Assembly: GCA_964609835.1 (NCBI GenBank)
Contig: CAZSTH010000001.1
Location: 34,087-98,086, forward strand
Reading direction: 5' to 3'
DNA length: 64,000 nt
From: an uncultured Thermoanaerobaculia bacterium
GTDB taxonomy: Bacteria; Acidobacteriota; Thermoanaerobaculia; Thermoanaerobaculales; Sulfomarinibacteraceae
A program made the position numbers and the translations under genes. Below the pieces are notes generated by a model, which saw only the letters and a program-made list of their open reading frames with translations, did not search any database and was not told where the DNA came from. Below, in pieces: positions 41,959 to 55,269 of the stretch; the first letter of the stretch is position 1; the number at the start of each line of letters is the position of its first letter.

Positions 41959-44073
41959 TCAGCCCACCAGCCAGGTGTCATCGACCGGATGATAGCTCGC
42001 CAGGCCCTCGCGGAGGCGTTCAAGCTCGTTGCCGGTCATCCGCGCGCAGCGTTCGCGCGTCGCCGCGATCATCGCCGCATCGCGGGCGAGGTCGGCAAAA
42101 CGAAAAGCTGCCGGACCCCACTGCCGGGTTCCCGTCAGCTCGCCCGGCCCGCGGAGACGGAGGTCAGCCTCCGCGATTTCGAAGCCGTCGCCGGTTTGGC
42201 ACACCGCCTCGAGGCGCTGGCGCGCGGCCTCGCCCGGCTCGTCATCGACCAGCAGGATGCACCAGGAGGCCCGCTCGCCGCGGCCGACCCGTCCGCGCAG
42301 CTGGTGGAGCTGGGACAGCCCGAAATGCTGCGCCGATTCGATCACCATCACAGTTGCCTCCGGCACGTCCACGCCGACCTCGACGACCGTGGTCGCGAGC
42401 AGGAGCCGATCGTCCCCCGAGCGGAACCGCGCCGTCACCAGCTCCCGTTCCTCGCGGCTCAGCCTGCCGTGGAGGATGCCGACACCGAACTCCGAAAACG
42501 CCTCCCGAACCTCGGCCTCGCGGTCCTCGATCGACGCCAGCTCGAGGTCCTCGTTGGCGTCGATGTGCGGACACACTATGAAGCCCCGCCCGCCCTCCTC
42601 GAGCTCACTGCGCAGGAAACGGTAGATGCGCGATCGGGCACCCACGGTCCTCAGCTCGGTCCGCACCGGCCGCCGGCCCGGTGGCATCTCGTCGACCAGC
42701 GACAGATCGAGATCGCCGTACACGGTCATCGTCAGGGAGCGCGGAATCGGCGTCGCCGTCATCACTAGCAGGTGCGGCGAATGCCCCTTGCGAAGCAGGG
42801 CAGTGCGTTGGGTGACGCCGAATCGGTGCTGCTCGTCGACCACCACCATCCCAAGCCTTCGGTAGATCACCGCCTCTTGAAACAGCGCGTGGGTGCCGAC
42901 AACCAACCGGATGGACCCATCCGCCACTCCACCGACCACCTGCCGGCGCTCCCGTGCGCTCAGGGAGCCGACCAGGAGCGCCGGCGGATACCCCGCCGTG
43001 TCGAGCACTTCCAGCGACCTCAGGTGCTGCTCGGCCAGGAGCTCGGTCGGCGCCATCATCGCCACCTGGAACCCGGCTTCGAGCACCAGAGACATAGCGA
43101 GAGCCGCAACCACGGTCTTGCCCGAGCCGACATCGCCCTGAACCAGGCGGGCCATGGGGCGCGGCCGCCCGAGGTCGGCTGCAATCTCGGCCACCACCCT
43201 CTCCTGAGCCGCTGTCAACCGGAACGGCAGCAGCGAGCGCACACCCCTGTCGGCCCCCCGCGCCGGCACCACCTGCGGCGCCTTCATGTCCCGACGCCGC
43301 CGCCGCGTACGCTCCACCGCGCACGCGTAGGCCATCAGCTCGTCGAATGCGAGCCGCGTGTGGGCTCCTGAACGACCTTCCTCGAGCGCATGCAGCGCCA
43401 CCTCCCGCGCCGCCGGGTCGGCGGGAAGCTGCGGTCGATGGAGCGCGACCAGGCTGTCCGCTATGCTCGGCAGTCCGGTGTCGCGCCGGATCGCGGCCGG
43501 CAGCGGGTCTAGGCAGCCGCTCGCCGCGACCAGGCATTGTTCAATCCACCGCCGCACGGCCCGTGATCCGAAGCGGCCGAGGCGGGGGTAGACCGGCACG
43601 ACACCTTCGGCGCCGTCCTCGCCGGGCTCGATCTCGGGGTTGACGAGCTCGAGGCCACCGCCGCGCCGGCGGCGGAGCCGTCCCCAGAGATAGAGCACGG
43701 GCTCGTTCTCGAGCCGGGCGCGGACCCACGGCTGATTGAACCACACAGCGGATAGGTGTGCGTGGCCGTCTTTGACCACTCCGTCCACGATGGTGAGCCG
43801 GCGCTTCGGGATGCGGCGCTCCCGGATCGCCGTGACGCGGCCGCGTACCAGCACCGGGCCACCCTCGCCCTGCAGCGAGTCGAGGCGCGCGACGCGGGAC
43901 CGGTCCTCCCACCGCCGGGGCAGAACGAACAGCAGATCCCGGACGGTCTTCAGGCGCTCGGCAGCGAGAGCCTCCGCCGATCGCGGGCCGATGCCCTTGA
44001 GCGCTGTCAGCGGGTCGTCGGGACCAAGCGGGCGGCCGCCGTCACTCAATCGCCGTTGGTCTCGAAGCGGCAC
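41959..44073 (-). CDS. recG: ATP-dependent DNA helicase RecG
   Basis: Wedge domain followed by GDVGSGKT, DEQHRFG, MTATPIPR and QLHQLRGRVGRG. An alternative TTG start at 44049 overlaps the upstream stop. Confidence 0.95.
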   Translation of the reverse strand: MPLRDQRRLSDGGRPLGPDDPLTALKGIGPRSAEALAAERLKTVRDLLFVLPRRWEDRSRVARLDSLQGEGGPVLVRGRVTAIRERRIPKRRLTIVDGVVKDGHAHLSAVWFNQPWVRARLENEPVLYLWGRLRRRRGGGLELVNPEIEPGEDGAEGVVPVYPRLGRFGSRAVRRWIEQCLVAASGCLDPLPAAIRRDTGLPSIADSLVALHRPQLPADPAAREVALHALEEGRSGAHTRLAFDELMAYACAVERTRRRRRDMKAPQVVPARGADRGVRSLLPFRLTAAQERVVAEIAADLGRPRPMARLVQGDVGSGKTVVAALAMSLVLEAGFQVAMMAPTELLAEQHLRSLEVLDTAGYPPALLVGSLSARERRQVVGGVADGSIRLVVGTHALFQEAVIYRRLGMVVVDEQHRFGVTQRTALLRKGHSPHLLVMTATPIPRSLTMTVYGDLDLSLVDEMPPGRRPVRTELRTVGARSRIYRFLRSELEEGGRGFIVCPHIDANEDLELASIEDREAEVREAFSEFGVGILHGRLSREERELVTARFRSGDDRLLLATTVVEVGVDVPEATVMVIESAQHFGLSQLHQLRGRVGRGERASWCILLVDDEPGEAARQRLEAVCQTGDGFEIAEADLRLRGPGELTGTRQWGPAAFRFADLARDAAMIAATRERCARMTGNELERLREGLASYHPVDDTWLVG

Positions 44074-44843
44074 TGGATCGTGCCGAAGACGACGGCGTCC
44101 CCGGGCGTTAGCGGCGCGGCGCGGCCCGCTACCAGCCGGACGCCGTTGACGAACGTCCCGTTCATGGTTCCCACGTCCTCGACGAGGCTGAAGGAACCGT
44201 CATCCTCGCGGCGAACGCGGGCATGCCGGCGCGAGATCGATCGCTTGCCATCCACCGGGGTCAGGTCCACGTCCGGCATGATCCCGGTGACCGGGTCGAT
44301 CCGGCCGATCGTTGTCTCCTTCGATTCCGACAGCGGGAAGGAGATCCCGCTCGAGACCTCCACCAACCGGGCATGCGGGTCGAGAGGGGCGGCCGGCGCC
44401 GGCTCCTTGATTCCCGACTCCTCGATGTCGACCTCGTGGCCCACCGCGTCCTCGAGCAGCTCGGTCGTCTGCTGCAGTCTCCGCACCAACTTGCGCATCA
44501 TGCGGATCGCGATCTCCGGGTTGTGCTTGAGAATGAACGTGAATGCGGACTGGTCGATCATCACCAGCTGGACGTCCTCCACGGCGTGCGCGGAAGCCGA
44601 TCGCGGGCGCTCGTCCTCGAGCATGCACATCTCGCCGAAGAAGTCGCCCTTGCCGAGGGTCGCGAGCACCTGCTCCCGGCCGCCGAGCCGTTTCCTGATC
44701 TCGACCTGACCGCCCTCGATCACGTACATCGCGAGGCCGAGGTCGCCCTCGGCAAAGATCACGCTGCCCTTCGGAAACTCGGTTCGCATCGGTTCCAGAG
44801 AGTCGTGGGTATCGCTCGTGGACTTGACCTTGAACTTCGCCAT
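44046..44843 (-). CDS. cyclic-nucleotide-binding domain / FHA domain protein
   Basis: The cNMP cassette GDFFGEMCML...RPRSASAHA carries the FGE..RSA phosphate-binding motif. The C-terminal FHA domain shows TTIGR...ISRRHARV...GTMNGTFVNG. Confidence 0.85.
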   Translation of the reverse strand: MAKFKVKSTSDTHDSLEPMRTEFPKGSVIFAEGDLGLAMYVIEGGQVEIRKRLGGREQVLATLGKGDFFGEMCMLEDERPRSASAHAVEDVQLVMIDQSAFTFILKHNPEIAIRMMRKLVRRLQQTTELLEDAVGHEVDIEESGIKEPAPAAPLDPHARLVEVSSGISFPLSESKETTIGRIDPVTGIMPDVDLTPVDGKRSISRRHARVRREDDGSFSLVEDVGTMNGTFVNGVRLVAGRAAPLTPGDAVVFGTIQCRFETNGD

Positions 44844-44844
44844 C

Positions 44845-45771
44845 TCAGCTCCACACCACGCAACCGAGCCGCGTGTCGACGGAGACCTCGGCGCCGATCG
44901 GCAGTGCCAGGTTCACGGCGCCGTGGCCGAACGGCAGGTCAACCACCACCGGCGCGCCCTCGGGAGCCGATTCTTCGAGCATGCAACACCACCTTCGCGA
45001 CCGTTCCGGAGCCGGGCGGCAATCACGCAAGCTCCCGCCAATCAATGCTTTCACCTTCCGCAATCTACCAGAGGACCGAAGGTGGGTCAACATCCGGTCG
45101 AGCCTGTAGAGGGGCTCGCCAACGTCCTCGAGAAACACCACCGAGCCCGCGAAGTCGGGCTCCCAGTCGGTGCCGATCAGGGACACCAGCACGCTGAGAT
45201 TCCCGCCGACGGAGGCCCCGACGGCAGCTCCGTGGCGCACCACCTGTCGCTCGCCGAATCTGAACAGACACTCGCCGCGGAGGCTCCCCTCCATCAGGTG
45301 GCGCAGCCGTGCGGCGTTGCGCGGGCGGTGCAGGCCTGCCGCGACCATCGGACCGTGGACCTGAACCGTTCCGCCCCGGCGCGCCAGCGGGTTGAGCAAC
45401 GCCGTCACATCGGAGAAGCCGACCAGCGCTACGTCGAGTTCGTGCAGCAGGTCCCAGCCCAGCCGGTCGAGAAGCCGGGTAGCACCGTAGCCGCCCCTGG
45501 CCGCCACGATCCAGCGCGCCCCGTGCTCCACGACCTCGGCCAGCCCGGCCAAACGCTCCTCGTCGTCACCGGCGAGGTAGCCCGCCCTCCGTCCCACGTT
45601 CTCCGCCACCACCACCGGGTGGCCCCAACCACGCACGACACCGAGGCCGGCCTCGAGGCGCTCTCGATCGACCGGCCCCGACAGCGCCGCCACGCCGATC
45701 GGCTCGCCGCGCTCGAGTCGCTTGAACGTCGCGTTCACGCTCTCAGCATGCCACGGATCGCGAGGTCGCAC
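44845..45771 (-). CDS. ldcA: LD-carboxypeptidase (S66 family, LdcA-like)
   Basis: IGVAALSGPV, AGYLAGDDEERLAGL, AARGGYGATRLL, DLPFGHG. The start may lie a few codons downstream. Confidence 0.8.
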   Translation of the reverse strand: MRPRDPWHAESVNATFKRLERGEPIGVAALSGPVDRERLEAGLGVVRGWGHPVVVAENVGRRAGYLAGDDEERLAGLAEVVEHGARWIVAARGGYGATRLLDRLGWDLLHELDVALVGFSDVTALLNPLARRGGTVQVHGPMVAAGLHRPRNAARLRHLMEGSLRGECLFRFGERQVVRHGAAVGASVGGNLSVLVSLIGTDWEPDFAGSVVFLEDVGEPLYRLDRMLTHLRSSGRLRKVKALIGGSLRDCRPAPERSRRWCCMLEESAPEGAPVVVDLPFGHGAVNLALPIGAEVSVDTRLGCVVWS

Positions 45772-45820
45772 GCCACTTTCCCGCCATCCAGGTGCGCGGC
45801 GTCACCCTCCGGCACGGTCC

Positions 45821-45859
45821 CCTTCAGCATTTCGTGCCGCCCGACGGCGCGGGCGGCAC

Positions 45860-45872
<13 letters not shown>
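45821..45872 (-). other. perfect 22-bp hairpin overlapping the 3' end of rnpB (terminator-like, no U tract)
   Basis: The arms at 45821..45842 and 45851..45872 are exact reverse complements, with an 8-nt loop. The arm at 45860..45872 is also the 3' strand of RNase P helix P1. Confidence 0.7.
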
Positions 45873-46245
<373 letters not shown>

Positions 46246-46310
46246 GCAGGATACACCCTGGAGCGTCAAGCCGCCAGTCCGGGGTCCGCGTCCGTTTCCG
46301 CGTTCGGGGA

Positions 46311-46359
46311 ACGGTGACGGTCAGCGGTGACGGTTGACGGAGACGGTGACGGTCAGCGG
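46311..46359. repeat. 17-nt direct repeat ACGGTGACGGTCAGCGG (x2, 32-nt period) within a GACGG-rich tract
   Basis: Copies at 46311..46327 and 46343..46359. GACGG occurs about 6 times between 46311 and 46359, 65-115 nt upstream of the rnpB 5' end. Confidence 0.6.
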
Positions 46360-46414
46360 ACACAGTGGCGGTCCGCATCGGCAACCGCGTCGCGAAACCA
46401 GGAGAACCCAGGGG

Positions 46415-47098
46415 TTAGACCACCCTGTTCATGCAGGTGACGGCGTACCCCGACAGCGACCCGGGCACGAAGCGGCAGTGGAGGCGGAAGCCGCGCTGGC
46501 GCACCTCGACTAGGGCCGCCTCGCCGTCAACCGTCCGGAAGCTTCGGCTGGCCTTGCGCAGCAGCCTCGACCGCAGCAGGTGGGAGACCTCTTCGAGGGT
46601 CTCGATGTCCTGCAGCAGCAGGGTCAGCCGCAGCGGGCTCGCGAGCTCGATGCTGGCCTCGAGGACCGCGGACTCGAAGGCCTCCACCATCTCCTCGACC
46701 TCCAACCCTCGCCCCCGCCACACTCCCAGCGGCTCCACGGTCAGCGACGACATCCCGCGCCTGACCGCGTCCTTCAAAATCGAGGACAGCGCCCGGCGGA
46801 CATTGCCGGCGCGGCAGGTCGGCTTGGCCTCGAGGTCGTGCACCACAGCCTGGTAGCTCCAGTAGGCGTCATCGGTACGGCTCCGCAGCAAAAGGTACCG
46901 CCCCACCGGGATCGGTCGATGTTCGGCGATCGCGACGTACGCGGCGTCGAGCCCGTCGTCACGGTCGAGGTCGAGGATGCCCGGCCCGGCCATCACCAGG
47001 TTGCGATCCTCCTGGACGACCGTCGCATCCGGGTGCAATCGTCTCCCGAGGGCCTCGTTCAGATCGAGGTCGAGTCGCAGGCTGAACTCGCGGACCAC
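46415..47098 (-). CDS. hypothetical protein, weakly macro-domain-like
   Basis: 227 aa with a GTG start. VVQEDRNLVMAGPG, AVVHDLE and MSSLTVEPLG loosely recall macro-domain motifs (IVNAAN..GGG, IIHAVGP, SIAFPAIS). No firm assignment. Confidence 0.5.
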   Translation of the reverse strand: MVREFSLRLDLDLNEALGRRLHPDATVVQEDRNLVMAGPGILDLDRDDGLDAAYVAIAEHRPIPVGRYLLLRSRTDDAYWSYQAVVHDLEAKPTCRAGNVRRALSSILKDAVRRGMSSLTVEPLGVWRGRGLEVEEMVEAFESAVLEASIELASPLRLTLLLQDIETLEEVSHLLRSRLLRKASRSFRTVDGEAALVEVRQRGFRLHCRFVPGSLSGYAVTCMNRVV

Positions 47099-47189
47099 CA
47101 GAACATTCTACCCCGTATTTCTCACCATCCCGCTCCTGCCGACCGCGATCTGCAGCGACGTGCGGCGCCTTCTCGCCTCGGATTCGACC

Positions 47190-48323
47190 TCAGTTGCCGT
47201 TGCCGCCCGTCGCCCGTTTCGCCATGTCGGGCGTGATCCGCAGCCGGTGCCGGCCGTCCCCCATCTCCTCCATGTCCTCGTGCTGCCAGGGGTCGAACTC
47301 GAGGCGGTTGACGATCTTGTTGAAGACCGTGCGCAGGGCCCGGGCCCCGGTCCGGATGTTCTGCTCCGCCGCCTCGGCGATCATCGCAGCCGCCACGTCG
47401 TCAAGCTCCAACTGGATGTCCATGACCTCGAAGAACGCCTTCGACCGCAGATAGGGCGAGTCGAGGGACTCCAGCAGGATCTCCTTGAGCACCTGTACGT
47501 CGAGGTCGCGGAGCAACACCACATTGTCGAAGCGGGCCATGAACTGCGGCACCATGCCGTACTCGAAGAGGTCCTCGGGCTTCAGGAAGTCCGCGAGCGC
47601 GAAGCGGGTCTCGATCCGGACCTGGCCGTCGGCGGTCTGCACCGCCTGCGACTTGAGCTTCTCACCGCTCGAGGGATTGATCACCCGCAGGTAGACCTGG
47701 TCGTAGAGACCCTCGAAGGCACCACCGCAGATGAACATCATGTGCCGCGTGTCGATGTTAAGGGTGACCGCCTTCTCCTCGTCGCCCACGCAGGCGAAGG
47801 TCTTGTAGGTCACGACCTCCCCCTCCATCAGGGTCAGCAGGCCCTGTTGCAGGACGACCCCAATGGGATTGGGCTTGCCCGCGACGATCGACGACATCTT
47901 GTCCACCTCGTCGATGCAGATGGTGGCTCGCTCCATGGTCTCACGCAGCGCGTCCGGGCTCGGCTGCTCGCCCACCAGGGCCCGCGCCCGCTGCTCGACC
48001 GCCTCCAGCAGCCGCGCCGGCTGGAACTCCATTCGCTCCGAGTCGACCAGCAGGTTGGCGTTGATGATGGTCATCGCCCGGAACGGCCGGTATTCCGGCA
48101 CGTCGTGGTACATCCGCTGGATGTTGTTCATGATGGTGGTCTTACCGGTGCCGGAGTTCCCGATCAGCAGGATATTGCCCGGCACCCTGCCGGTGGTGTG
48201 CTTGTAGACGGCGACCGACACGTAGCGAAGGGCCGAGTTCTGCCCGAGCACGCCCTTGCGGAGCTCGTCGAAGATCTCCGGCGGCGCGATCTTCTCGAGC
48301 GGTCGCAGCTGACCATCGCTCAT
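47190..48323 (-). CDS. ClpX-like AAA+ ATPase lacking zinc-finger, GYVG pore loop and IGF loop
   Basis: Collinear with ClpX: VLGQNSALRYVSVAVYKH, Walker A GNSGTGKT, Walker B ICIDEVDK, VLQQGLLTLMEG, MFICGGAFEGL, PEDLFEYGMVPQFMARF, TGARALRTV. Start ATG 48323 overlaps the stop of the upstream gene (ATGA). Confidence 0.85.
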   Translation of the reverse strand: MSDGQLRPLEKIAPPEIFDELRKGVLGQNSALRYVSVAVYKHTTGRVPGNILLIGNSGTGKTTIMNNIQRMYHDVPEYRPFRAMTIINANLLVDSERMEFQPARLLEAVEQRARALVGEQPSPDALRETMERATICIDEVDKMSSIVAGKPNPIGVVLQQGLLTLMEGEVVTYKTFACVGDEEKAVTLNIDTRHMMFICGGAFEGLYDQVYLRVINPSSGEKLKSQAVQTADGQVRIETRFALADFLKPEDLFEYGMVPQFMARFDNVVLLRDLDVQVLKEILLESLDSPYLRSKAFFEVMDIQLELDDVAAAMIAEAAEQNIRTGARALRTVFNKIVNRLEFDPWQHEDMEEMGDGRHRLRITPDMAKRATGGNGN

Positions 48324-49507
48324 CACGCGACCTCCCACACCCCTTCCCGCTGCACCAGCTCGGTCCCGTCCACCTGCACCGACCGGCCGCAACCGCCGGG
48401 TCGGAAGTCGGTGACGATGTCCACGTGCTGCGCCGAGCGGTTGAGCACGCCCCGCTTCGCGAGATCGTCGATCCGCTCCTTGCCCGCATCGGAGGCGGCG
48501 TTCTCGACGAAGCACTCGTCGTAGCTGGCGCCGATCGCGATGTGGAGGGTTCCCCCGACCTTCTCGACGAACAGCGGGTGCTTGAGCACTTGGTCGAGGC
48601 CCGGGTTCATCCCCAGCGCGACCTCCCCGAGCCGGTGCGAACCGTCGTCGGTCTCGATGATCGCCGCGAGGTGATCCTGTCCCACCTGTGCCGAGTAGTC
48701 GACGATGCGTCCGCCGTCGAAGCGCAGGTAGATGCCGCTGATGTCATTGCCGCCGTAGCTCACCGGCAGGTCGACGAAGATCTCGCCCTGCGCGCTGTTG
48801 GCGTCCGGGCTCGTGAAGATCTCACCGTCGGGGAAGTTTCGGAGGCCGTAGGACATGACCGCGCGGCCCTCGCTGATGTCGAGCTTGAGCGACAGCTCGC
48901 GAGCATCGTCGGGGTGCTCGGTCACGATGCGGATCTTGGTGCCGTCGTCGATCACCGGCGCGAGCTTCCGCTCGGCCTCGAGCAGCGGCCTCGGATCGGT
49001 GGTGGAGGCGCCCACGATGAATCGCTCGTAGGTTTCGTACGCCATCTCCTCCTGGGCGGCCGCGGCGGGGGTCGGGAAGAGCGTGATCACCCAGGGCTTG
49101 GACAGGCGGATGTTGGCGAACGGCCGGTCGGCTGCCGCGAGGGCCTGGGTCTGCTGCGCCGAGAGCCCTTTGAACTGTTCCGGGGCCTCGGCTCCGAGGA
49201 CCTCCACGTACTTGGTCATGCTCTCGTAGCGTTGGCGGTGCCACTCAGGAACCCGCTGCAGCTGCCCGTCGGTCGCGGAGCGGCCCATCGCCGCCGACCA
49301 CACGCGTCCGCGGTCGTTGTCCGGCGGCACGAGACAGACGTCCGGCACCGCGCCCGCCTCGATCACCTTGCGCTGCAGAACCGCCATCAGCGGCCAGCAG
49401 ATCCCTTCGCCCTTGATCATCACGCGATCGTCGGCGCCGACGCCGCCGAGCGAGTGGTCGAGCAGGTAACCCGCCCATACCTCGAGATCGTGTTCGTCGA
49501 TCATCAC
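48323..49507 (-). CDS. M29-family aminopeptidase (AmpS/PepS-like)
   Basis: LRNFPDGEIFTSP, GEVALGMNPG, VGGTLHIAIG and HVDIV match the M29 pattern. Start is GTG 49507 or ATG 49504, with a GGGGAG SD. Confidence 0.85.
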   Translation of the reverse strand: MMIDEHDLEVWAGYLLDHSLGGVGADDRVMIKGEGICWPLMAVLQRKVIEAGAVPDVCLVPPDNDRGRVWSAAMGRSATDGQLQRVPEWHRQRYESMTKYVEVLGAEAPEQFKGLSAQQTQALAAADRPFANIRLSKPWVITLFPTPAAAAQEEMAYETYERFIVGASTTDPRPLLEAERKLAPVIDDGTKIRIVTEHPDDARELSLKLDISEGRAVMSYGLRNFPDGEIFTSPDANSAQGEIFVDLPVSYGGNDISGIYLRFDGGRIVDYSAQVGQDHLAAIIETDDGSHRLGEVALGMNPGLDQVLKHPLFVEKVGGTLHIAIGASYDECFVENAASDAGKERIDDLAKRGVLNRSAQHVDIVTDFRPGGCGRSVQVDGTELVQREGVWEVA

Positions 49508-49537
49508 AACTCCCCTGCCGCAGAGGCGGCGGTCGGC

Positions 49538-49543
49538 ATTGTA
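49538..49543 (-). promoter_or_regulatory. putative -10 box TACAAT upstream of the M29/ClpX-like pair
   Basis: TACAAT lies 30 nt upstream of the M29 start, in the 52-nt gap after the SDR gene. Confidence 0.4.
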
Positions 49544-49559
49544 GCTCGGAAGCCGTGGG

Positions 49560-50420
49560 CTATGGGGCTCCGGGGGTCACCGCTCGACCGAGCCGCTCGA
49601 GACCGAACCGCCGCGACAGGATGCGGTCGCGAAGCCGGACCGGCAGCAGGGCCAGGAAGGGGAGCAACCGCGATCCCGATCCGAGGCGCAGCGTGTGCGG
49701 CGGGCGCTCGCCCGTCACCGCCGCGACCACTGCACGAGCGAACTCCTCGACGCCGATGGAACGGTGCTCCGAGAAGCGTGCGCGGGCCTCGATCGCGTCC
49801 TGAACCGTGCTGTAGACAGAGCCCTTCCGATAACGGTCGACCCCGCCCATTGCGGTCGTGCTGAAGCGGGTCGCGACTGCACCAGGCTGCACGGTCACGA
49901 CGTCGATCCCGAACGGAGCGAGCTCCATCCGCAGCGCATCCGAAAGCAGGTGGACCGCAGCCTTGGAGCCGCTGTAGGCGCCGCCGAACGGAGCCGCGAT
50001 GATTCCCGACGCGCTGCCGATGTTGACGATGGTGCCCGAGCCCGCACCGATCATGTGCGGAACCACGGCCTGCGTCACCGCCACCAGCCCGACGACGTTG
50101 GTCTCGAGCTGCCGCCGTAGCTCGGCCAGATCGAGCTCGGATACCGGACCGATCAGACCGTAACCGGCGTTGTTGACCACGATGTCGACCCGACCCGCCC
50201 ACTCGAGGCAGGATGCAACTGCAGCGTCGATCGTCGCCGGCGAGGTGACGTCGAGAGCCGCCGTCGCGACCGCCTCTCGCGCGATGTCGGCCAGGCTTTC
50301 CGGCCTCCTGGCTGTCGCCATCACCCGGTGACCCGCGACGGCGAACGCCCCCACCAGCTCGCGCCCGATCCCTGACGAGCAACCGGTCACCAGAGCGACC
50401 CGTTCAGCCGCGTTCGCCAT
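49560..50420 (-). CDS. short-chain dehydrogenase/reductase
   Basis: TGCSSGIG cofactor motif, NNAG, and YSGSKAA (YxxxK). Confidence 0.9.
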   Translation of the reverse strand: MANAAERVALVTGCSSGIGRELVGAFAVAGHRVMATARRPESLADIAREAVATAALDVTSPATIDAAVASCLEWAGRVDIVVNNAGYGLIGPVSELDLAELRRQLETNVVGLVAVTQAVVPHMIGAGSGTIVNIGSASGIIAAPFGGAYSGSKAAVHLLSDALRMELAPFGIDVVTVQPGAVATRFSTTAMGGVDRYRKGSVYSTVQDAIEARARFSEHRSIGVEEFARAVVAAVTGERPPHTLRLGSGSRLLPFLALLPVRLRDRILSRRFGLERLGRAVTPGAP

Positions 50421-50514
50421 GCAACACCTCCGCGGCGACCTGTCGATGGCCGCATCCTACAGCCTCCAGCCTCGACCCCCTCTCCCAATTTAGAATCGAG
50501 TATCATCACCGACC

Positions 50515-53500
50515 ATGGGACCCCCCGAAGGTACCGAACCCACTTTCGAAGATCTCCGGGAACGGCCGCCGGCCGAAGCTGCCGGCGTCATCGCGCGCCA
50601 GCTGGTGGACGAAGACGCCCCACAGCGCCGGGACAGCCGACTGGTCGACCTCCTGGACGACCGCCGAGCCGGCGACCAGATCCTGGAGCACCTGCCGTTG
50701 GAGGCGCTGGAAACCCTGGCTCGGCGGTGTGCGGGGCGGTTGGATCCGTCGAGTCCGGAGCCGTCGAGCAACGCCGTCGCATGGCAGCTGCTGGACGTCC
50801 TCCGAAGGCGGGAGGTGCTGGTCCGGATCGCCGCGGACGGGACCGTCGACAGCTGGGCGGAGCTGCTGCTCGAGCTGGTGGAACGGTCGCACTTCACCTT
50901 CGCGCGCCTCTTCCAGCAGCGTGCCGCGGGCTACGGCGAGCGGCCCCTCTTCGAGCTTCCCGCCAACGGCGGCAGCCGCAAGGTCAGCTGGCGGCAAGCC
51001 TCGGGACGGGTCGACCTGATCGCCCGATCTCTGCTCGCGCTCACCGCAGCCACCGGACAGCAGCCGGTGGGCATCCTGTCCCGGAACCGGCTCGACATGG
51101 CGCTCGTCGATCTCGCCTGCCTGACCAGCGGCATCGTCAATGTCGTGGTACCGGCCAATGCGACCGAGACCGACGTCGCATTCATCCTCGAACACGCCGA
51201 TGTCGGTGCCGTCGTGGTCTCCGACCGCGAGCAGGTCCAGAAGATCCTCAACGTTCGTGATCGGCTGCCACGGCTGGGACCGTTGGTGGCCCTCGACCCC
51301 GCGGCGGCCGGGCGTCACGGCGCGATCGCCTTCGAGCAGCTGATGGCAAGATCGTCGGAGGTGGCACCGGAGCAGCTCGAGGAGCGCCGGAGCGCGCAGC
51401 GCGTCGACGACCTGGCGACCGTCATGTACACCTCGGGAACCACCGGCACCCCAAAGGGCATCTGCTTCACCCAGCGCAACATCGTGTCCAAGCGCTTCGC
51501 GCGGGCGCTCGCGCTGCCGGAGATCGGCGAGGGCGACCGCTTCCTCTGTTATCTACCGCTCTTCCACACCTTCGGCCGATTCCTCGAGATGACCGGCTGC
51601 GTGTTCTGGGGCGCCACCTACTGCTTCGCAGACGATCCGAGTGTCGAGACCCTGACGCGGCAGATGCGTGGCCTGGGCACCACGGTCTTCATCAGCGTGC
51701 CGATGAAGTGGATGCAGCTCTACGATCTCGTGCGGCAGAGCGTGGATGTGGTGGCGGCAACCGACGACGAGATCCGGACCGCCCTGCGCGAGGTGACCGG
51801 ACCCGCACTGCGTTGGGGCCTGTCCGCCGCCGGCTACCTCGACCCTGAGGTCTTCCACTTCTTCCAGCGCAACGGTGTCGAGCTGATGAGCGGCTTCGGC
51901 ATGACCGAAGCCACCGGCGGCATCACCATGACCCCGCCCGGGCACTACAAGGACGACTCGCTCGGGCCCGCGCTTCCCGGCGTCGAAACCGACCTCGCGG
52001 CCGACGGGGAGATGGTGATCCGCGGCCCGTATGTGATGCGCGGCTACCTCGACCCTCCGGACGGAGTGCCGTCCTTCGACGACCGCGGCTGGTTCCATAC
52101 CGGCGACCTCATGGAGCGCGACGAGGACGGCTACTACCGGATCGTCGACCGCAAAAAGGAGATCTACAAGAACATCCACGGCGAGACCATCGCCCCGCAG
52201 AAGATCGAGAACCTCTTCCGGGACTTCGACTCGGTGGGCAGGGTCTTCCTCGTCGGCGACCACCGTCCCTACAACACGGCCCTCGTCTATCCCAACCCTG
52301 AGTTCGAGGAGATCGACCTGGCGTCGCTTTCGCCCAATGATCTGAAGGACCACTTCAGGTCGTTGGTGGTGAGCGCCAACTCCTTCCTGGCGCCGTACGA
52401 GCGGATCATCGACTTCGCCATCATCGACCGCGACTTCGACGCCGACCGCGGCGAACTCACGCCCAAGGGCACCTACCGGCGCAAGAACATCGAGCGCGCC
52501 TTTTCCGACCGCATCAGCCTCCTCTACCGGCGCCGCACGCTGACGGTCGGCGGCGCGAACGTGGTGGTGCCCAACTGGTTCTTCCAGGCGCTGGGCATGA
52601 CGGCCCAGGATCTCATCGTCGACGGTGACGAGCTTCGGCTGCGGTCCGAGGGCACCACGCTGGCCATCCGCGCCGAGGGCGAGGGCGCGGTCAGGGTCGG
52701 CTCGGTGGTCTACACCCTGCAGCAGAAGGCCGTCGACCTCGGTCATCTCCTCTCGATTCCCCGCCTGTGGCTCGGCAACGAGGCGCTGGTTGGCTTCGCA
52801 CCGCTCGCCCCCGAGCAGCGCAACCGCCGCCGGCGGCGGCGGGTGTCCGCAGAATGGCTGCGGCGCACCAGTCCCTATCGCGCGAGAACCGCCGACGGTG
52901 ACGCCATCTCCGCGCTGATGAGGCGCCAGGAGGCGGAGCTCCGCGACGTCCACCAGGCCGCGCTCCTGCTGGCGAGCGACGACGAGGGGGTGGCGGTGCA
53001 GGCGGTCAGGATCCTTGACCACCTCCTTCACATCGACGACAGCGGGCTCAACGATTTCACGCTCAGGATCCTGCGGCGAGCGGCGGACTCACCGCTTGGC
53101 CGCGTCCGCCAGCGTGCCTTCCAGGTCCTGGCGTCGGTGGAGCTCGACTCCCGGTACCGGAACACACTGGCTCGCTTCTTCGACAACGGCCACAACGTCC
53201 TCGATGCCGAGACCATCTCGGTGCTCGTCGACCGCGACCTCACCTCCCACCAGATCGAATGCTTCATCGCCGAGGCCGAGTCGCGGTGGATCCGCGGCGC
53301 CGGCGGCGGCGCCGACTACGACGTCGTCCGCGCCATGTGTGCCTTTCTCGCCCGTTACGGTGCGGCACATCCGAGCCAGTATCGCCGCCTCCGAGGCTTC
53401 TTCACGCGATCGATGATGATCGCCTCCGACCAAACCGCTCGGGACATGGCGGCGGCCGGCAAGCGCGAGCTCGCCGACGGCTTCCGGCTGTGGCTCGGCG

Positions 53501-55269
53501 CCCCGTCCCGGGTCGCGGTCGACCCCGAGACCGACCTCGAGTACCGCTGGGAAGACGTCGTCGAGTTCTCTGACGAGGTGGACACCGAAACCAGGGACCG
53601 GATCCTCGACGCCTTGCGGACCACGCCGGTGTTGCGCGAGGCTTCGTTCCTGATCGGCACCGCTGCGCGACCGGTTCGGCTCGAGGACATCCTCCCTGGC
53701 GGCGTCTGGGTCCGCCTCCTCGGCACCTCTCACGGCAAGTCGGTCTATCGAGTCGCCGTGCGAACCCGCGACCGGGAGCAGTTCGACCTCGCCCTCAACC
53801 TCAACCACGACCTCTCTCCCGACGACGTTCAGGAGGAGATCAACTGGCTGATCGTCTGCAGCGAAAGCAACGGGCGCGGCCCCTTGGTGGAGGTCTTCGG
53901 CGGGTGGTGGCACGAACATCATCTGTGGACCGAGGAGTTCATTCCCGGAGAGACGCTCGACAGGGCGCTGGCGCGGCTCGCGCGCAAGCATGCCGAACAG
54001 CCGGAGCGGATGACCCTGTGGTGGCCCTTCGCAGCCTGGGCGGCCGTCAGCGCCTACGTCGACTTCTGGAACCGCACCGGGCGTCGCCTGGTGGTGGCGG
54101 ATCCCTCGCCTGCGAACGTCATTGTCCCGCTGCACGACTACCACACCGGAGCGCGGCTGGTGTCGATCTCCTCGCGCGCTCCCTTCGACTCCCTTCCGAC
54201 CATGCTGCGGAGCTTCCAACACCATTTCATCGCGCCGGCCGAGGCGGCTCACCCGGAGCTTCGGGGCCTCGCCGGGTGGCAGGTCCTGTTCTCGGCGGTG
54301 CTCGAGGTGATCGGCGTCGAGGGCGGCGCCGCCGAGCTGCGGGCGGTCCTCGAAGCCTCAACCAGCGAGGATGCCGAGATGGCAGCCAGCCTCGAGGAGT
54401 TCCTGAGCGCGGTCGGAAAGCGCGGCTTCCTGCCGCGGAGGCTCTTCTTCGCTGCCAAGCGATACCACCGCTGGGAGGAGCTCAACCCCGACGCCACCTT
54501 GAGCGCTCGCGCGAGGACCCTCCAGGAGATCTACCAGACCTACGACCTCGGCGAGCTGGACGCAGTTTTACCGGAGGCGAGAGCGCGCTTCTTCCGCGAG
54601 ACCGTGCTGCAGAACGCCTGCGGCGAGCTGGTGGCCGGGCTCGAGGAGCTGATCAGCCGGCTCCGCTGTGCCGAGCTCGCTCGGGACGAGATGAGCGCCG
54701 CGGTTGCCGACCTGCGCGCCCACCTCTCGCTCGCGCCGGAGGAGGACTACTTCCTCGCCCGCCTCTCCTATCCCCATCTCCGCCCGGACGACGAGGCCGA
54801 GTACGTCGAGGCGGCAGCCGGGGGCATCCAGCAGAGCGAGATGGTGGTCACGCACGAGGACTCCGAAGGCATGCGCTATCAGATCCGCCACGCCCTCAGC
54901 GCCAAGGAGGTGGGGCGCCTCCACCGGCTGTTCCTGACCGCCAAGCTGCCAGTCCAGTTCCGGCCGGAGCATCGTTTTCTGGTCGCCATCAGCGATCGCG
55001 GTAACCTCATCGGCGGGCTGTTTTACGAGCTCGAACCCGAGGCTCAAACCGCCCACATGGACAAGATCGTGGTCGCCGACGCGTTCCACGGGCGGGGCAT
55101 CGCTGCCAATTTGCTGGAGGAGCTCAAGCACCGGCTTCGAACCGGCGGGTGCGGCGCGCTAACCACGGGCTTCTTCCGCCCTCAGTTCTTCTACCGGATG
55201 GGTTTTAGCGTCGAGCGCCGCTACGCCGGGCTGTACCTCTCGCTGGTGGACGGCGGCGGGGAGGGGTGA
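50515..55269 (+). CDS. 1584-aa multidomain protein: acyl-adenylate-forming ligase (FACL-like) / helical and kinase-like middle region / C-terminal GNAT acyltransferase
   Basis: AMP-binding motifs MYTSGTTGTPKG, GFGMTEATG, GWFHTGDL and DRKKEIYK in the first ~690 aa. The middle contains EEFIPGETLD...VVADPSPANVIVP, resembling ABC1/UbiB-type kinases. The end has VADAFHGRGIAANLLEELK...MGF (GNAT). Confidence 0.85.
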   Translation: MGPPEGTEPTFEDLRERPPAEAAGVIARQLVDEDAPQRRDSRLVDLLDDRRAGDQILEHLPLEALETLARRCAGRLDPSSPEPSSNAVAWQLLDVLRRREVLVRIAADGTVDSWAELLLELVERSHFTFARLFQQRAAGYGERPLFELPANGGSRKVSWRQASGRVDLIARSLLALTAATGQQPVGILSRNRLDMALVDLACLTSGIVNVVVPANATETDVAFILEHADVGAVVVSDREQVQKILNVRDRLPRLGPLVALDPAAAGRHGAIAFEQLMARSSEVAPEQLEERRSAQRVDDLATVMYTSGTTGTPKGICFTQRNIVSKRFARALALPEIGEGDRFLCYLPLFHTFGRFLEMTGCVFWGATYCFADDPSVETLTRQMRGLGTTVFISVPMKWMQLYDLVRQSVDVVAATDDEIRTALREVTGPALRWGLSAAGYLDPEVFHFFQRNGVELMSGFGMTEATGGITMTPPGHYKDDSLGPALPGVETDLAADGEMVIRGPYVMRGYLDPPDGVPSFDDRGWFHTGDLMERDEDGYYRIVDRKKEIYKNIHGETIAPQKIENLFRDFDSVGRVFLVGDHRPYNTALVYPNPEFEEIDLASLSPNDLKDHFRSLVVSANSFLAPYERIIDFAIIDRDFDADRGELTPKGTYRRKNIERAFSDRISLLYRRRTLTVGGANVVVPNWFFQALGMTAQDLIVDGDELRLRSEGTTLAIRAEGEGAVRVGSVVYTLQQKAVDLGHLLSIPRLWLGNEALVGFAPLAPEQRNRRRRRRVSAEWLRRTSPYRARTADGDAISALMRRQEAELRDVHQAALLLASDDEGVAVQAVRILDHLLHIDDSGLNDFTLRILRRAADSPLGRVRQRAFQVLASVELDSRYRNTLARFFDNGHNVLDAETISVLVDRDLTSHQIECFIAEAESRWIRGAGGGADYDVVRAMCAFLARYGAAHPSQYRRLRGFFTRSMMIASDQTARDMAAAGKRELADGFRLWLGAPSRVAVDPETDLEYRWEDVVEFSDEVDTETRDRILDALRTTPVLREASFLIGTAARPVRLEDILPGGVWVRLLGTSHGKSVYRVAVRTRDREQFDLALNLNHDLSPDDVQEEINWLIVCSESNGRGPLVEVFGGWWHEHHLWTEEFIPGETLDRALARLARKHAEQPERMTLWWPFAAWAAVSAYVDFWNRTGRRLVVADPSPANVIVPLHDYHTGARLVSISSRAPFDSLPTMLRSFQHHFIAPAEAAHPELRGLAGWQVLFSAVLEVIGVEGGAAELRAVLEASTSEDAEMAASLEEFLSAVGKRGFLPRRLFFAAKRYHRWEELNPDATLSARARTLQEIYQTYDLGELDAVLPEARARFFRETVLQNACGELVAGLEELISRLRCAELARDEMSAAVADLRAHLSLAPEEDYFLARLSYPHLRPDDEAEYVEAAAGGIQQSEMVVTHEDSEGMRYQIRHALSAKEVGRLHRLFLTAKLPVQFRPEHRFLVAISDRGNLIGGLFYELEPEAQTAHMDKIVVADAFHGRGIAANLLEELKHRLRTGGCGALTTGFFRPQFFYRMGFSVERRYAGLYLSLVDGGGEG

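Follow-up and report, generated by a model that had tools for sequence, protein, structure and literature searches.

The window analysed here is a stretch of 64,000 nucleotides (nt) from an uncultured Thermoanaerobaculia bacterium of the phylum Acidobacteriota (assembly GCA_964609835.1, contig CAZSTH010000001.1, positions 34,087 to 98,086), with a GC content of 68%. The subject of this work is a pair of minus-strand genes, in which a gene encoding an M29-family aminopeptidase is followed by a gene encoding an AAA+ ATPase derived from ClpX. In a first-pass annotation, made by reading the letters alone, the ATPase had been described as a ClpX paralogue that lost its substrate-threading and ClpP-docking elements and that might be dedicated to the aminopeptidase. 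The results support the first part of this description and not the second: the ATPase belongs to an uncharacterised family with an intact ATPase site and without the ClpX pore and docking loops, and its pairing with M29 is restricted to one lineage. The short-chain dehydrogenase (SDR), M29, ATPase and orphan genes are consecutive and all of them are on the minus strand, as follows.

48323..49507, minus strand: M29-family aminopeptidase gene, 394 amino acids (aa), assigned by Pfam PF02073 and its EEHYHD residues; aligns with AmpS, PepS and AmpT
48321..48325, minus strand: M29/ATPase junction TGATG, read from the sequence, with one base common to TGA and ATG
47190..48323, minus strand: ClpX-derived AAA+ ATPase gene, 377 aa, of an uncharacterised family (NCBIfam, Pfam AAA_2, PDB, Foldseek)
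46415..47098, minus strand: orphan gene, 227 aa, with a macrodomain-like predicted fold (AlphaFold2 (AF2) and Foldseek)
49560..50420, minus strand: SDR gene (Pfam adh_short, 2.4e-48), whose 3' end lies 52 nt before the M29 start

Over its full length the ATPase aligns with ClpX, and its best match in the PDB is E. coli ClpX (3e-25 with phmmer and 6e-48 with the family profile), whereas HslU and ClpB/ClpC align with it only in parts in the same search. The AF2 model (predicted local distance difference test, pLDDT, 87.8) gave the same result, since the top 50 Foldseek matches are ClpX chains (E 4e-21, TM 0.70). Concerning the profile databases, the score against Pfam AAA_2 (PF07724) is 47.3 bits over a threshold of 27, which places the protein among the AAA+ proteins of the ClpX/HslU/ClpB-D2 type. 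However, it falls under the whole-protein curated cut-off of both NCBIfam ClpX equivalogs (139.3 bits versus 359 for NF003745 and 104.2 versus 370.75 for TIGR00382), and it is not a member of the HslU family either (TIGR00390, 62.2 bits versus a cut-off of 362, with only terminal segments aligned). The motifs for nucleotide binding and hydrolysis are located at these positions.

48135..48161, minus strand: Walker A GNSGTGKTT, residues 55-63, invariant in the family
47898..47921, minus strand: Walker B ICIDEVDK, residues 135-142, with D138 and E139 invariant
47532..47534, minus strand: Arg finger R264, invariant, also in comparison with ClpX
47331..47351, minus strand: sensor-2 TGARALR, residues 325-331, with G326, A327 and R328 invariant

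These four elements are invariant across the family and ClpX, and the protein also carries VLQQGLLTLMEG, which corresponds to the VQQALLK-like helix, and the FICGGAF box. Its nucleotide site is intact, and the protein is an AAA+ ATPase that derives from ClpX without being ClpX itself.

The defining features of ClpX are its pore loops and the IGF loops used for docking. In the ATPase of the window, the zinc-finger domain is absent, with no Cys before residue 136 and just 13 residues ahead of the AAA+ module. GYVG at pore-1 is absent as well, being aligned with E-R-M-E, and so are the RKH loop, where the aligned segment is VGDEEK, and the IGF tripeptide, where the aligned residues are EKL. Finally, the pore-2 loop is shorter by 3 residues in the MAFFT alignments or by 4 in the HMMER pairwise alignment. 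The corresponding segments are listed below.

48012..48062, minus strand: pore-1 loop position, NANLLVDSERMEFQPAR, with no GYVG; near-invariant among orthologues
47844..47879, minus strand: shortened pore-2 loop position, GKPNPIGVVLQQ, from the alignments
47751..47816, minus strand: RKH-loop position, a beta-hairpin with no RKH (alignment; AF2 strands 170-179 and 182-191)
47601..47672, minus strand: IGF-loop position, SSGEKLKSQAVQTADGQVRIETRF, with no IGF and with a predicted beta-hairpin (218-241); highly conserved in all orthologue clades

The motif losses were read from three independent alignments (one with HMMER and two with MAFFT), which all agree. As a control, six further ClpX-like proteins without a zinc-finger domain were included in an alignment. 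At the IGF columns, [IVMF]G[FY] is kept in all six (the forms given are IGF, MGF, VGF and FGL), and at the pore-1 columns GYxG is present in four and GCxG in two. The loss of the pore-1 and IGF motifs is thus not an alignment artefact, because the same alignment recovers them in the six controls. Furthermore, since other ClpX-like proteins without a zinc finger keep both motifs, it is their combined loss that defines this mostly acidobacterial family. The paralogues with about 40% identity likewise lack the pore-1 aromatic residue. Instead of the lost elements, the orthologues present near-invariant motifs, NANLLVDxxRxEF at pore-1 and SGExLxSxAxxADGQVRIExRF in the IGF hairpin. Regarding aromatic residues, F100, within an invariant MEF, is placed three residues past the position of the ClpX Tyr and is absent from the 40% paralogues. 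The ATPase retains no element by which ClpX recognises, grips or translocates its substrates or docks onto ClpP. Three statements of the first-pass annotation have therefore held up, namely the alignment with ClpX over the whole AAA+ module, the lack of an N-terminal zinc finger and of any Cys before Walker A, and the losses of GYVG and IGF, for which it had asked for a multiple alignment that is now available.

To delimit the family, 1.84 billion cluster representatives were searched exhaustively, and only 53 of them were found at E<=1e-30. These include one full-length group at 74% identity and around eight full-length groups at 39-44%, and below them the scores drop to about 100-110 bits, where ClpX sequences of canonical length start. 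At the 90% identity level, more than 120 clusters are at least 84% identical to the ATPase of the window. The closest relatives come from metagenome-assembled genomes (MAGs) of Acidobacteriota, labelled Holophagae, Thermoanaerobaculia or Acidobacteriota. The identities to the window for ATPase, M29, 227-aa protein and SDR, in this order, are 88, 76, 77 and 64% in locus L001; with the ATPase again first, they are 79, 72 and 57% in L005 and 77, 73 and 66% in L090. The ATPase is consistently the best conserved of these proteins, and it is under strong purifying selection, stronger than that on its neighbours.

Concerning the most distant members, two paralogues, 43% (L008) and 40% (L013) identical to the window protein, are encoded in one genome, the Thermoanaerobaculia MAG DASWME01, so the family has diversified into subfamilies. 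A 667-aa protein with a HELGH motif and no Pfam hit is encoded near L008. Another member, P0124 (716 aa, 44% identity), carries a xylose-isomerase-like TIM barrel (PF01261) as a C-terminal fusion, and its N-terminal extension is rich in Cys and unlike the ClpX zinc finger. In the databases, the Joint Genome Institute (JGI) labels the relatives as ClpX, and automated pipelines name them "ClpX" or "AAA family ATPase". This is an uncharacterised ClpX-derived group that is mis-annotated as ClpX in databases.

The protein encoded upstream matches Pfam Peptidase_M29 (PF02073) with an E-value of 1.7e-48 and 165.9 bits over a cut-off of 27, and no NCBIfam model matches it. Its N-terminal half is divergent, and the phmmer alignments with solved structures are limited to residues 222-383. 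The alignment to S. aureus AmpS showed that all six catalytic and metal residues (EEHYHD) are kept, as E229, E295, H322, Y329, H361 and D363. Judging by these residues, the protein is probably an active aminopeptidase. Its length and architecture are ordinary, with no added docking domain.

At the junction of both genes, the sequence is GCG TGA TGA GC, where the first TGA is the M29 stop codon and the ATG of the ATPase overlaps it by 1 nt. The overlap between start and stop that had been annotated is real, but its sequence is TGATG and not ATGA, as the ATGA seen at the window junction includes a second in-frame stop. A true ATGA overlap exists in the close relatives L001-L004. The overlap is restricted to the sub-clade of the window, and in the sub-clades with 73-82% ATPase identity it is replaced by gaps of 60-170 nt. 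M29 and the ATPase are probably translationally coupled in the sub-lineage of the window, and M29 would be co-expressed with the ATPase.

To what extent this pairing is conserved was examined in at least 14 loci from species-representative genomes, 10 obtained by exact-protein look-up and 80 metagenome loci. The M29, ATPase, 227-aa and SDR proteins of the window, together with alternative neighbours, were mapped on all of them by tblastn; genes were called with a caller based on GC content at third codon positions (GC3), and a neighbour-joining tree was built with 96 distinct ATPase sequences. Near relatives share the synteny of the whole region and are therefore uninformative about functional linkage. 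The orthologues fall into three major clades. In clade 1, whose ATPases are 71-100% identical to that of the window, M29 is directly upstream in 39 of 39 distinct M29-labelled loci, the window included, with M29 proteins that are 68-80% identical to the one studied here. A subclade nested within clade 1 (L091/92, L093 and L089/94, three distinct loci) has no M29 and presents a DUF1573-like gene upstream. The upstream genes of L089 and L091 were considered as degenerate M29 genes and rejected, as they are DUF1573-like and unrelated to M29; a 404-aa open reading frame (ORF) upstream in L128 was also discarded, being neither M29 nor a match to any other Pfam family.

No M29 is adjacent in clade 2 (64-69% identical); frequent neighbours there are a Zincin_1 gene, 280-750 nt upstream, and, downstream, an ankyrin-repeat gene. 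The Zincin_1 product (PF06262) is a small putative metallopeptidase, encoded upstream of the ATPase in the sister-clade loci L006, L085, L087, L115 and L134, and in L086 it is 3.9 kb away. Clade 3 (61-67% identical) also lacks an adjacent M29, and its upstream genes include Ser/Thr kinase, ABC, TPR and TonB genes. Taken together, M29 is adjacent in none of the 31 evaluable distinct loci of clades 2 and 3, where the ATPase is 61-69% identical to that of the window, and in none of the 11 loci of the paralogues with about 40% identity, whose neighbours are fabH, ftsY, vapBC and others. As for ftsY, the gene for the signal recognition particle receptor, it directly follows a 40% paralogue in L018:5971-7988 (with a 4-nt overlap) and in L011:6007-8101. 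In the survey that the first-pass annotation had proposed, adjacency is conserved throughout one clade, except for three nested loci, and absent outside it; by the criterion that this annotation had set against itself, the adjacency fails to hold in homologues.

The outer flanks vary within clade 1. In L090, for example, SLT and UDPGP genes are upstream and an FHA-sigma54 activator gene is downstream, and the SDR gene is an unstable neighbour, which just some of the close relatives have upstream of M29. Some clade members, though not the window, carry a 2.7-kb kinase gene that separates the ATPase from the macro-like gene. The inserted gene encodes a protein of about 886 aa, with a Ser/Thr kinase and a Tricorn/PD40 beta-propeller, and was found in L001:7246-9906, L002:7451-10120 and several L1xx loci. 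Since the SDR, SLT, kinase insertion and macro-like gene come and go, M29-ATPase is the sole invariant adjacency of clade 1. The pair is a real two-gene unit that is stable in one clade.

Whether the linked ATPases look different was examined by comparing 39 M29-linked with 42 unlinked orthologues. The two groups have the same residue, conserved to 90% or more, at 152 of the 377 positions, and these shared near-invariant positions include the motifs at the pore-1 and IGF positions. Only one position is conserved but different, Q101 against R101. With a single discriminating position in 377, nothing points to an interface specific for M29. Moreover, as the same surfaces are present with or without M29, the binding target of the new surfaces would be common to linked and unlinked lineages.

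The 227-aa protein encoded downstream has 255 detectable homologues and, among the matches listed, none is named beyond "hypothetical protein". No Pfam hit, Macro included, was obtained even at E<=1, and no NCBIfam model matches it. Its AF2 model (pLDDT 74.5) predicts a macrodomain-like fold with a C-terminal beta extension, and Foldseek matched it to TTHA0132, PARP9 macro 2, DarG and YmdB (E 7e-7 to 1e-5, TMt 0.6-0.7) and, likewise with E about 1e-6, to alphavirus nsP3. On the basis of this model, the protein is assigned a macro fold; the would-be ligand loop corresponds to residues 32-68, which are modelled at pLDDT <50. In clade 1 the gene is downstream of the ATPase at most loci, L089 and L093 among them, two of the three nested loci without M29. 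It is absent within 3.5 kb in L104, L101, L111, L106 and L091 of the same clade and from both sister clades.

Two further features complete the region.

45863..46238, minus strand: bacterial RNase P RNA, class A, 269.8 bits, matching the full-length model
49538..49543, minus strand: TACAAT hexamer, known from sequence only and unverified as a promoter

The RNase P RNA sits between the 227-aa gene and an LD-carboxypeptidase gene, and the mechanically listed ORFs over it are spurious. Beyond it are the LD-carboxypeptidase gene (ldcA), a cNMP-binding/FHA gene and recG. The cNMP-binding/FHA gene (44046-44843, minus strand) overlaps the mechanically listed GTG start of recG (41959-44073, minus strand) by about 28 nt; this arrangement is kept in L001-L003, and both genes may be coupled. 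On the other side, a gene divergent from the SDR gene (50515-55269, plus strand) encodes a product of 1584 aa that combines AMP-binding (acyl-CoA synthetase-like) with GNAT acetyltransferase domains and is syntenic in L001-L004. These surroundings are an acidobacterial housekeeping or core-genome region, neither a mobile nor a defence island. A PADLOC scan of the M29, ATPase and 227-aa proteins gave nothing significant. M29 and the 227-aa protein had zero matches and those of the ATPase were weak and at the level of the P-loop (the best was DolB, 1.4e-6, residues 16-73), so this is not a known anti-phage defence system. A search for canonical clpX in the 64-kb window matched only the ClpX paralogue, and clpP was not noticed there, though no search was aimed at clpP specifically.

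With regard to transcription, the pair had been credited with its own TACAAT box. The hexamer is indeed present at 49543..49538, but a scan of 45700-50600 for sigma-70-type promoters returned none that passes, and the hexamer carries no weight. A separate promoter for the M29-ATPase pair is unproven because the SDR gene ends 52 nt upstream of the M29 start, and the SDR gene is possibly co-transcribed with M29. The terminator scan of 45700-50600 found none between genes.

Considering all these data, we favour, with a probability of roughly 55%, that the ATPase is an AAA+ remodeller or regulator which depends neither on ClpP nor on threading and has M29 as a lineage-specific operon partner. The protein would most likely assemble as an ATP-hydrolysing ring, working without ClpP and without canonical threading of polypeptides. 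It could be an ATP-driven remodeller or switch, and its new conserved surfaces would serve to bind a partner or substrate that all its lineages share. M29 would then be an operon partner of one lineage, either co-regulated with the ATPase or its client, and not its defining partner. As the pairing is confined to one lineage, the ATPase is probably not dedicated to M29. Several points weigh against this proposal. A sole invariant adjacency amid changing flanks is the classic signature of a functional link, and the absences of M29 from the unlinked clades concern the neighbourhoods of the loci. In addition, F100 could still face the pore in the orthologues, and the hexamer, the ATPase activity and the lack of ClpP binding are all predictions.

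The alternative that survives best, although we consider it unlikely, is that the ATPase is a dedicated partner of M29. Both would form an ATP-dependent exopeptidase machine of a new type, in which the ATPase acts as a chaperone or remodeller, either presenting N-termini to the peptidase or regulating it. The 39 of 39 clade loci in which M29 remains directly upstream, despite its 68-80% identity and the changing flanks, are what this explanation would predict, but the 3 nested, 31 sister-clade and 11 paralogue loci without an adjacent M29 are not. The same occurs with the junction, where the 1-nt overlap in the window and the ATGA of L001-L004 suggest coupling, yet they become gaps of 60-170 nt in the sub-clades at 73-82%. 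M29 keeps its catalytic residues, but it is ordinary in length and architecture and has no docking domain, and the ATPase has neither the pore-1 aromatic needed for threading nor a clade-specific surface beyond one discriminating position in 377. The presence of another putative metallopeptidase, Zincin_1, upstream in several sister-clade loci could point in the same direction; nevertheless, it is 280-750 nt away, or 3.9 kb in L086. Hence, the dedication to an aminopeptidase put forward in the first-pass annotation is not sustained, given that adjacency is not conserved in homologues and that a single position discriminates the two groups, and its suggestion that the ATPase feeds N-termini to the enzyme is, if threading is meant, mechanistically implausible without pore loops. 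A more elaborate scheme, which we hold to be quite improbable, is that in this acidobacterial lineage a ClpX-derived ring swapped ClpP for an exopeptidase. In this scheme, the hexamer would attach to an M29 dimer through the invariant beta-hairpin found in place of the IGF loop, with the macro-like protein possibly as an adaptor, and the sister lineages would rely on an M29 from elsewhere in the genome or on a different peptidase, for instance Zincin_1.

It is also doubtful, to a similar degree as that last scheme, that the true partner is the downstream macrodomain-like 227-aa protein, or that the three genes form a module, with ADP-ribose or a nucleotide-derived signal, or an adaptor function, involved. 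The orphan family is confined to the same lineage and its predicted fold matches macro domains, but Pfam Macro gives no hit at E<=1 and the model is of low confidence at residues 32-68. Although the gene lies downstream in most clade-1 loci, also in L089 and L093 where M29 is lacking, it is absent within 3.5 kb in the five loci named above and is often split from the ATPase by the 2.7-kb kinase gene. In both sister clades it is absent, and an ankyrin-repeat protein is often encoded there instead.

The remaining two explanations are effectively refuted. An ordinary ClpX that works with ClpP, the loop losses being alignment errors, agrees with the JGI labels and with the fold and ATPase motifs, which are those of ClpX, but hardly any room is left for it by scores far under both ClpX equivalog cut-offs, by the concurrence of HMMER and two MAFFT alignments on the missing motifs and by their recovery in the six controls without a zinc finger. 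A decaying or non-functional ClpX remnant, which the loss of several functional elements might suggest, is the least credible of all in view of the extreme sequence conservation across lineages, the invariance of all ATPase motifs and a GC3 of about 0.9 or higher in the homologues, typical of expressed genes in these genomes.

The interest of these findings lies in a whole family that dropped the ClpX pore and IGF docking loops and yet keeps an intact ATPase site, so that a ClpX scaffold appears to be re-used for a ClpP-independent and probably non-threading job. Acidobacteriota are a dominant and poorly studied soil phylum, and the family is invisible in their annotations because pipelines label its proteins as "ClpX" or "AAA family ATPase". 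The stable pairing with M29 in one lineage offers a concrete and testable handle on function, and the near-invariant replacement motifs are obvious targets for mutagenesis. Should M29 and the ATPase indeed form a complex, M29 would be the first aminopeptidase assisted by an AAA+ protein, an AAA+/peptidase pairing that has not been described previously.

Concerning known systems, the M29 protein belongs to the same family as AmpS, PepS and AmpT (1ZJC, 4ICQ and 2AYI) and has the same six EEHYHD residues. To our knowledge, the characterised M29 enzymes are stand-alone, with no known AAA+ partner, and a literature search for ClpX-like proteins together with M29 aminopeptidases returned no report of an AAA+ partner of M29 peptidases.

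HslU (ClpY) is part of the same HCLR clade as the ATPase, and its small domain and sensor-2 region align with it. HslU keeps the GYVG pore loop; the ATPase, for its part, lacks the I-domain of HslU. The likeness to E. coli ClpX (6wsg, 4i34 and 6po1) is closer, as both proteins have the same AAA+ module with large and small domains and share Walker A and B, the VQQALLK-like helix, the ICGGAF box, the Arg finger and the sensor-2 GAR(A/G)LR. However, the identity is about 28%, the C4 zinc-binding domain, GYVG, RKH and IGF are missing, and the pore-2 loop is shorter. Unlike ClpX, the ATPase has additional conserved insertions past the Walker A helix (YHDVPEYRPFRAM) and ahead of Walker B.

Regarding ClpX paralogues and the loss of IGF, the literature search yielded one relevant paper, on ClpX3 of Myxococcus xanthus (MXAN_2743). 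This is an atypical ClpX without the N-terminal domain and the RKH loop, which is not linked to clpP and is 43.5% identical to E. coli ClpX (PMC11423568). Its deletion causes a conditional heat-sensitive phenotype (PMC11423568), and such ClpX paralogues can therefore be functional. Compared by its published description, ClpX3 is the nearest described precedent for the ATPase of the window, since it is also stand-alone and also lacks the zinc finger and RKH, though it is far nearer to ClpX.

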